Source: Naegleria gruberi (Eukaryota). From it: a DNA stretch of 2,443 bases. The notes beneath the pieces were generated by a model. The model saw only the letters and a program-made list of their open reading frames with translations, had not been told where the DNA came from and made no database searches. Positions 1,039 to 2,443 of the stretch are shown here, one piece after another; position 1 is the first letter of the stretch; the number at the start of each line of letters is the position of its first letter. The DNA lies in the NCBI GenBank assembly GCA_000004985.1, contig GG739260.1; one strand, written 5' to 3'. Made by a program: the position numbers and the translations under genes.

Positions 1039-1408
1039 TCAACTTGTCATTATTTGAAATCATGTAACAAAGCAACAGCTAAATATTGGCCATCCACTCA
1101 AATTATCAAAGCTCAACTTGTTAATTACAGAAACATCAATATGACAATGTCATTAATCATCCACTCAAATTATAAATTGAAAGATCCAATTACATCCACT
1201 AATTTTACCATGGCCATGTTGTTTCCACTTATTCAAATTCAGTGTATTTCCAATCAGATTCAATAATATTAATTCCAAATAATTGTAGTAACAAATAAGA
1301 AATCTCTCCTAACAATTCCGAATATTGTAATGTAATACATATTAAGTGAGATTGTTAGCAAAATAGGTTTGAAATAACCTTACATGAAAATGATAAATGA
1401 CAAGTTAA
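1039..1408. mobile_element. MITE-like non-autonomous element (~370 bp) bounded by terminal inverted repeats.
   Basis: Left end TCAACTTGTCATT (1039-1051) and right end AATGACAAGTTAA (1396-1408) form a 12/13 inverted repeat; AACTTGTCATT is an 11/11 match. Palindromic CATG sits a further 9 nt inward at both ends (1061-1064 and 1383-1386). The interior is AT-rich and carries its own direct repeats and palindromes. No clear target-site duplication was found, which lowers confidence. Confidence 0.3.
1091..1207. repeat. Dispersed direct repeat CATCCACTCAAATTAT: two exact copies plus one partial, inside the MITE-like element.
   Basis: Exact 16-mers at 1091-1106 and 1158-1173. A partial copy, CATCCACTAATTTTA, is at 1193-1207. 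Spacings are 67 and 35 bp. Confidence 0.6.
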
Positions 1409-1826
1409 TATTTCTATTAATGAGTATCATCCTCATCACTAATAAATAAATAATCAATAATTAATAATAAGAGTAAACTTACTTGACGATAGATCTGATC
1501 AATTAATTTAATATGTCAATAATGTTGATAATGTTGATGATAAATTAGGTTGAAAACTAACCTTTAGCATTTAGAGATTAGAACTTCATCCAAACTCAAT
1601 AGATTCCAACTAGTAAAGTCAAATAAAGCTAATATAAATGTGTAAATTAATTGGTAATGGCAATTTTAATCAAGTAAACCTACAACATTTTGCAATTGTG
1701 TATTTAATGTGAGATGTCATTGTGTATTAATTCAAATCAAAAAAGCTTACTTAAACATATCAATTTAAATATCAATTAATGAAAATTAACAACTAAAAGT
1801 AACTGAACTTACTTGAAAATGATATT

Positions 1827-1870
1827 CAGATATAATAGGAAGATTTCTCAAGTATAATAGGAAGAATTAT
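1827..1870. repeat. 22-bp tandem repeat x2, just downstream of the minus-strand gene's stop codon (probable 3' UTR).
   Basis: cagatataataggaagatttct / caagtataataggaagaattat, 18/22 identical. On the mRNA strand this is CTTCCTATTATA twice. Confidence 0.65.
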
Positions 1871-1893
1871 CAAAATAATTTGATACATTATAG

Positions 1894-2095
1894 TTACTTA
1901 CATTTTAAAAGAATGGAATGACAATCCAACACCTTGGAAAGGTATATTTTGGTGTCGTTTCGTAAAACTATAGCTTTGTGACCCACTCGCTCAATCGGCA
2001 ATGCCATCATTGAAGTGATTTTACCTAAACTCACTTCTTTGATGATGAGCTTGATTGTGGAGTCACGTACTACAAATGAATCAATTATTGCAGTT
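1894..2095 (-). CDS. Exon 3 of the same gene. Probably the terminal coding exon, with a TAA stop at 1894-1896.
   Basis: The frame set by the exon 2 to exon 3 junction reads KTAIIDSFVVRDSTIKLIIKEVSLGKITSMMALPIERVGHKAIVLRNDTKIYLSKVLDCHSILLKCK* with no stop for 64 codons; the other two frames stop within 5 codons. Local GC content is raised (gcgagtgggtcac). A GTGAGT at 2029-2034 and a GTAAGT overlapping the stop (1896-1901) are possible alternative donors, so the 3' boundary is uncertain. Confidence 0.5.
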
Positions 2096-2136
2096 CTAAA
2101 ATCAGTGAAAGAAACTAAGTAAACAAGAAAACTTAC
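2096..2136 (-). other. Intron 2, 41 nt, GTAAGT...TTTTAG.
   Basis: Minus-strand sequence gtaagttttcttgtttacttagtttctttcactgattttag. The split codon AA|A is completed as Lys, and the downstream frame stays open for 64 codons. Confidence 0.6.
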
Positions 2137-2294
2137 TTATTATCAATTGTAAAAATTCCAGAGTTATCAGCAGCTCCTTTCTTATCATGTTTGGCAAGAT
2201 ACATCCCATTATACATCACTGCCGAAATTTGATCTTGTGACTTCTTCATTATAATTGTATTTCCAATACTCTCATACTTTGAAACCATTGCAAG
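2137..2294 (-). CDS. Exon 2 (158 nt, phase 0 in / phase 2 out) of the same gene.
   Basis: After the intron 1 acceptor only one frame is open. It reads LAMVSKYESIGNTIIMKKSQDQISAVMYNGMYLAKHDKKGAADNSGIFTIDNK for 52 codons; the other two frames stop within 15 codons. The exon ends 2 nt into a codon at a perfect GTAAGT donor (plus 2131-2136). Confidence 0.65.
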
Positions 2295-2336
2295 CTAAAT
2301 ATGTTGAAGTAGTTATTAAGATTATTAGCAACTTAC
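2295..2336 (-). other. Intron 1, 42 nt, GTAAGT...ATTTAG.
   Basis: Minus-strand sequence gtaagttgctaataatcttaataactacttcaacatatttag. Canonical GTAAGT donor and AG acceptor. Splicing keeps the single open frame open across the junction. The length matches short nematode introns. Confidence 0.6.
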
Positions 2337-2443
2337 ATTCTTTTTATCCACAATTTCAAGGAGAGGAAGAAAAGTTTCATTTGCAATTCTGTACTTCAAT
2401 TCTTTGGTTAAATTAAAACTTTCCGATGCATACATTTCCACAT
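2337..2443 (-). CDS. Exon 1 (partial; runs off the window edge) of a spliced minus-strand gene, product unknown. Possible start Met at 2433-2435.
   Basis: Minus-strand frame 3 is the only frame without stops. It reads VEMYASESFNLTKELKYRIANETFLPLLEIVDKKN, while the other two frames stop within 12 codons. The exon ends in phase 0 immediately before a perfect GTAAGT donor (plus 2331-2336 = acttac). The frame is open to the window edge, so the true 5' end may lie beyond 2443. Confidence 0.6.

Follow-up and report, generated by a model that had tools for sequence, protein, structure and literature searches.

The minus strand of the window, i.e., the whole 2443-bp stretch of DNA that was analysed, probably carries a small spliced coding unit from the nuclear genome of an AT-rich eukaryote whose introns measure ~41–44 nt, and the product would be a lineage-restricted basic protein. 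As we read it, transcription of the minus strand would be followed by removal of two U2-type GT-AG introns, 42 and 41 nt long, which bring in immediate stops if retained, and then by translation of the resulting 459-nt frame, which runs from a presumed start ATG at 2435 to a TAA at 1894. The gene model as a whole is well beyond chance and has a real coding signature. A preliminary description of this segment had proposed a minus-strand coding unit of three exons and about 150 aa, and this proposal was borne out by reassembly of the exons and by intrinsic statistics.

Exons, introns and the ends of the reading frame

Reading of the minus strand and reassembly of the exons gave three short exons and two introns of 41–42 nt, with uninterrupted spliced frames (the coordinates of the exons and introns are all for the minus strand). 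Coding exon 1 (2337..2441) encodes (VE)MYASESFNLTKELKYRIANETFLPLLEIVDKKN; its first ATG is at 2435–2433, and no stop interrupts the frame up to the window edge. Intron 1 (2295..2336) is 42 nt long, has the sequence GTAAGTTGCTAATAATCTTAATAACTACTTCAACATATTTAG, and runs from GTAAGT to TTTAG; its retention would introduce in-frame TAA and TAG stops. Coding exon 2 (2137..2294) has a single open frame, which encodes LAMVSKYESIGNTIIMKKSQDQISAVMYNGMYLAKHDKKGAADNSGIFTIDN(K). Intron 2 (2096..2136) is 41 nt long, has the sequence GTAAGTTTTCTTGTTTACTTAGTTTCTTTCACTGATTTTAG, and runs from GTAAGT to TTTTAG. The frame is moved by one across this intron, and retention would give an instant stop, AAG TAA. Coding exon 3 (1894..2095) encodes (K)TAIIDSFVVRDSTIKLIIKEVSLGKITSMMALPIERVGHKAIVLRNDTKIYLSKVLDCHSILLKCK, followed by a TAA stop at 1896–1894; it lies within an open stretch of 80 codons, and its genomic frame differs from those of the other exons.

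The spliced join is in frame and measures 465 nt when counted from 2441; the part that begins with the ATG at 2435 and ends with the TAA at 1894 is 459 nt and codes for 152 aa. The whole 152-aa product is MYASESFNLTKELKYRIANETFLPLLEIVDKKNLAMVSKYESIGNTIIMKKSQDQISAVMYNGMYLAKHDKKGAADNSGIFTIDNKTAIIDSFVVRDSTIKLIIKEVSLGKITSMMALPIERVGHKAIVLRNDTKIYLSKVLDCHSILLKCK. Both introns have the features of U2-type GT-AG introns, i.e., GTAAGT at the 5' end and an AG after a T-rich tract, and for both introns removal leaves a continuous frame and retention interrupts it. The junctions given in the preliminary description, 2337|2294 and 2137|2095, proved to be exact. Its statement that each exon has a single stop-free frame, and that GTAAGT donors and AG acceptors join these frames, was likewise confirmed: one stop-free frame only was found in each of the three exons. 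The protein length of 153 aa had to be corrected, since the earlier translation, DNKKTAII, had a surplus K where exons 2 and 3 meet; the junction peptide is DNK-TAII, and the product is 152 aa.

The original view of the gene unit as complete is not supported, in that the frame runs off the window edge and the stop overlaps a consensus donor. At the 5' end, no stop is met in the exon 1 frame before the window edge. Only two codons separate the edge from the ATG at 2435, which is therefore a presumed start codon. The context of this ATG is GAA ATG T, with A at –3. At the 3' end, the TAA stop sits inside a further GTAAGT (1896..1901, minus strand), in the context AAA T|GTAAGT AA. The GTAAGT at 1901 is thus a candidate alternative donor, from which exon 3 might splice onward. 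Continuation through this donor would put a tail of at most ~10 residues in place of the final two; both the spliced-ORF search described below and direct reading showed that all acceptors reachable from the 1901 donor soon meet a stop. Extension of the coding sequence through the GTAAGT at 1901 was accordingly rejected, the gain being ~10 codons at most.

Coding signal compared with chance

The window is ~28% GC, and the longest ORF in any frame is no longer than 80 codons. The chief argument of the preliminary description was that each exon has one open frame. While correct as an observation, this is weak as evidence at 28% GC and is matched by shuffled sequence: windows of the same composition had a longest open stretch of ~75 codons and ~5 stretches of at least 50 codons. 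The window itself contains a chance-like open stretch of 79 codons that is unrelated to the gene (plus strand, 1027–1263). Given the weakness of the open-frame argument at this composition, we applied tests that are independent of frame openness.

The donor hexamer GTAAGT occurs six times in the window versus 1.17 expected, a ~5-fold excess that was reached in none of 200 dinucleotide shuffles. The distribution is strand-biased: the minus strand has five of the six copies, all within 1477–2336. Further, the extended donor context AAGTAAGT is present in three copies versus 0.13 expected; it is common to the intron 2 donor and to sites at 1812 and 1482. Looser donor-like sites show the same tendency, with 11 on the minus strand versus three on the plus strand.

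Both strands were then searched exhaustively for spliced ORFs with an ATG start, GTAAG donors, and any AG 35–130 nt downstream as acceptor. The longest strict-donor spliced ORF on either strand was the proposed chain, at 483 nt (459 nt to the TAA at 1894). The same search of 200 Markov-shuffled windows gave 202±50 nt with a maximum of 435 nt, so that the 483-nt chain is above all of them. The next best spliced ORF of the window was 192 nt, and it lacked periodicity. When any GT was allowed as donor, chance spliced ORFs exceeded 1 kb and the search lost its power; the weight of the spliced-ORF result is therefore carried by the consensus donors.

Codon-position composition provided a further measure. 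In the spliced frame, the frequency of G is 0.28 at codon position 1 versus 0.10 at position 2. The difference, G1–G2, is thus 0.18, as against 0.03±0.04 for stop-free stretches under the Markov null (p ~6e-4). The purine frequency at codon position 1 is 0.69 (p ~8e-4). The periodicity is present in every exon taken separately, in the frames proposed: G1–G2 is 0.23 for exon 1 (purine at position 1, 0.69), 0.21 for exon 2 (purine at position 1, 0.75), and 0.14 for exon 3, with exon 2 having the strongest periodicity of the whole window. A six-frame sliding scan of 468 forty-codon windows put the best three within exons 2 and 3, again in the proposed frames. Base composition also follows the model, the GC content being 0.305 for exon 1, 0.32 for exon 2 and 0.361 for exon 3, which is the highest-GC segment, in comparison with 0.238 and 0.27 for the introns and 0.23 for the downstream DNA. 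Reading of the window with alternative genetic codes (TGA as the only stop, or TGA as Trp) did not improve the ORF structure, and no alternative-code ORFs were found.

The predicted protein and searches for relatives

The predicted product is a basic protein of 17.1 kDa with a pI of ~9.35. Inspection by eye showed no long hydrophobic segment of the kind expected for a signal peptide or a membrane span, and the protein is apparently soluble. No internal repeat was found in the protein.

The sequence searches turned up no relative. An hmmscan of the product against Pfam-A at E<=10 listed only DUF7910 (E 0.12, 12.8 bits, with a gathering cut-off of 35), product residues 12–89 being aligned to profile positions 53–134. 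In plants, DUF7910 accompanies GH5_11 glycoside hydrolases as an accessory domain (PMC12656318). We rejected membership in this family as a chance match, the score being below threshold and no glycoside hydrolase domain being found in any frame. There was no match to the product in NCBIfam, among PDB sequences at E<=10, or in a word-indexed search of 5.8 billion clusters, and when 1.84 billion 50%-identity representatives were scanned in full with phmmer, none matched at E<=0.001. Searches of metagenome and viral contigs with back-translated peptide patterns yielded no match that was upheld by tblastn, and a degenerate DNA pattern for the peptide ALPIERVGHKA was absent from metagenome and prokaryote genome contigs. 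The 152-aa protein itself was also absent from the protein collections searched, transcript-derived assemblies included. The assignment of the product to no known family, made before any database had been consulted, is in keeping with this outcome, none of the protein and DNA collections searched having yielded a relative.

A suggested resemblance to profilin, Roadblock/LC7 or SRP14 found no support: none of the three was found in Pfam at E<=10, and PDB sequences gave no match. AlphaFold models made from the single sequence had a mean pLDDT of 39.9 for the full length and 39.0 for residues 35–152, and with pLDDT values of ~39–40 no fold is assignable. These low-confidence models suggest a short helical part at the N-terminus and then about seven beta strands, i.e., a mainly beta-strand body. 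A Foldseek search of the PDB with the full-length model of pLDDT 40 gave a best E of 0.29 and TM below 0.25, which is noise. The product is thus similar to profilin, Roadblock/LC7 and SRP14 in size (~100–150 aa) and, in low-confidence models only, in the pattern of a helix followed by strands; it is unlike them in having no Pfam or PDB sequence match to them. Our guess, a weak one, is that the product might be a small non-enzymatic protein of the binding or adaptor type, since it showed neither a catalytic or cofactor motif nor a match in Pfam.

Judging from its absence from the databases searched, the unit is probably a taxonomically restricted (orphan) gene that either evolves fast or arose recently. 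Small orphan genes are ordinary in eukaryotes, and often make up 10% or more of gene sets. The lack of relatives among ~15 billion proteins is notable, is not rare in such lineages, and is partly a matter of database coverage. In its short multi-exon coding sequence, its GTAAGT...TAG introns of ~40–45 nt, an exon GC content above that of the introns, and the lack of a detected homologue, the unit is like the orphan small genes of AT-rich, short-intron eukaryotes; the comparison differs in that orphan status here is taken from absence from the databases searched. A more specific reading, which we offer tentatively, is that the product may represent a protein family not seen before, for which the ~15 billion predicted proteins contain no detectable relative; its gene would then be lineage-specific, either born de novo or evolving extremely fast, with a stop codon that lies within a functional donor, where alternative splicing could switch the C-terminus.

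If the gene is real, it would be one more unannotated lineage-restricted small gene in an AT-rich eukaryotic genome, of the kind overlooked by ORF-length filters when every exon is below 70 codons. Its practical value would lie in the correction of annotation and in providing a candidate for work on how genes are born de novo; taken alone, the gene raises no new question.

Downstream DNA, alternative readings and the rest of the window

Donor-like sites of consensus type continue on the minus strand past the stop, at 1812 (GTAAGT), 1750 (GTAAGC), 1482 (GTAAGT) and 1383 (GTAAGG). The site at 1482 begins a well-formed 44-nt unit, GTAAGT...TTATTAG (1482..1439, minus strand). A search for open or periodic exons between the downstream donor-like sites (1383–1901, minus strand) found none. 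These sites could be introns of the 3' UTR, part of a downstream non-coding transcript, or relics, and, given their presence, the transcript structure may depart from the three-exon model. Two further observations concern this region. There is a marginal similarity over 39 nt (77%, E 0.036) between 1735–1772 and 2121–2156, that is, between the surroundings of the GTAAGC at 1750 and the exon 2/intron 2 donor region; it reaches into the exon side, and a local duplication may have left it as a relic, or it may be due to chance. Searches by blastn and tblastn for a second copy of the gene within the window gave no significant match. In addition, a 22-nt tandem duplication (TCAGATATAATAGGAAGATTTC / TCAAGTATAATAGGAAGAATTA) occupies 1826–1869, 25 nt past the stop, in the presumed 3' UTR.

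Three other readings of the locus have to be set against that of a small spliced coding unit. It is very improbable that open frames and GT/AG dinucleotides in non-coding, AT-rich DNA have produced the model by pure chance. Such an origin is suggested by the ease with which shuffled windows yield open stretches of 75 codons, along with ~5 of at least 50 codons per window, and by the random appearance of spliced ORFs over 1 kb when any GT may serve as donor; yet it leaves the enrichment and strand bias of GTAAGT unaccounted for, as well as a strict-donor ORF longer than that of all 200 shuffles, periodicity at p < 0.001 with the best periodicity windows coinciding with exons, and the steps in GC content at exon/intron borders. 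A larger gene, starting beyond 2443 and represented here by its 3'-terminal exons, is unlikely. In such a gene the ATG at 2435 would specify an internal Met and the 152 aa would be the C-terminal part of a longer protein. Such a structure agrees with the lack of any in-frame stop in the two codons that separate the window edge from the ATG, and a truncated domain would also account for the unconfident structure models. The ATG, however, has a reasonable context (A at –3), there is no acceptor AG between it and the window edge, and a C-terminal piece of ~150 aa from a known family should have been matched by the local phmmer search or by Pfam, which did not happen.

Rather improbable, too, is a transcript that is spliced but non-coding, or else a pseudogene or piece of a transposon in decay, in which the splice signals would be real and the ORF would not specify a functional protein. 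The lack of homologues fits such a transcript or relic, the protein being missing from very large collections that include transcript-derived assemblies, as does the series of GTAAGT, GTAAGC and GTAAGG sites that extends as far as 1383 and encloses no coding exon, an arrangement like that of a non-coding RNA with several exons. The marginal 77% similarity between the exon 2/intron 2 junction and the 1750 site, and a nearby MITE-like inverted repeat indicating mobile DNA in the window, point the same way. Against this, significant and frame-correct periodicity in three separately framed exons is unexpected for decayed or non-coding DNA, the spliced frame is clean even though both introns stop at once if retained, and no transposase or other TE domain was found in any frame. 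On balance we favor a small spliced gene encoding a protein.

The rest of the window is unrecognised. A six-frame Pfam search of the window found no domain, and the 35 other open stretches of the window, when concatenated, had no match among the 5.8 billion clusters. The window had no Rfam match at E<=1, no tRNA genes were found in it, and in its full length it had no blastn match among phage and plasmid records. We infer that the window resembles the sparse-gene nuclear DNA of a eukaryote, not prokaryotic or viral DNA.

The highest GC content outside the gene (~0.36) is that of the segment 780–920. This segment contains a perfect 10-bp hairpin, CTCAAAGTTG-GGTG-CAACTTTGAG, at 891–914, and an imperfect 22-nt inverted repeat at 801–822 / 859–880. 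It was considered as an RNA gene and rejected, its folding being unexceptional (z –0.9 and –1.4) and there being no Rfam match.

Several repeats were noted elsewhere. A 39-nt inverted repeat (51–89 / 536–574) is 87% complementary, has the core ACGCAATTTTCAAAA(A/T)AAACGCA, and encloses 446 nt. By its arrangement the repeat looks like the terminal inverted repeats of a MITE-like element of ~520 bp, without definable target-site duplications. There is a tandem repeat of an 11–12-nt unit, CAAGCCAAAAA, at 92–125, after which 3.5 copies of a 20-nt unit, CAAAAATGCTATTATTAGCT, occupy 120–189. Lastly, the 18-mer CATCCACTCAAATTATCA occurs three times in 1091–1210 (copies of 94% and 78%), inside the plus-strand open stretch 1027–1263.
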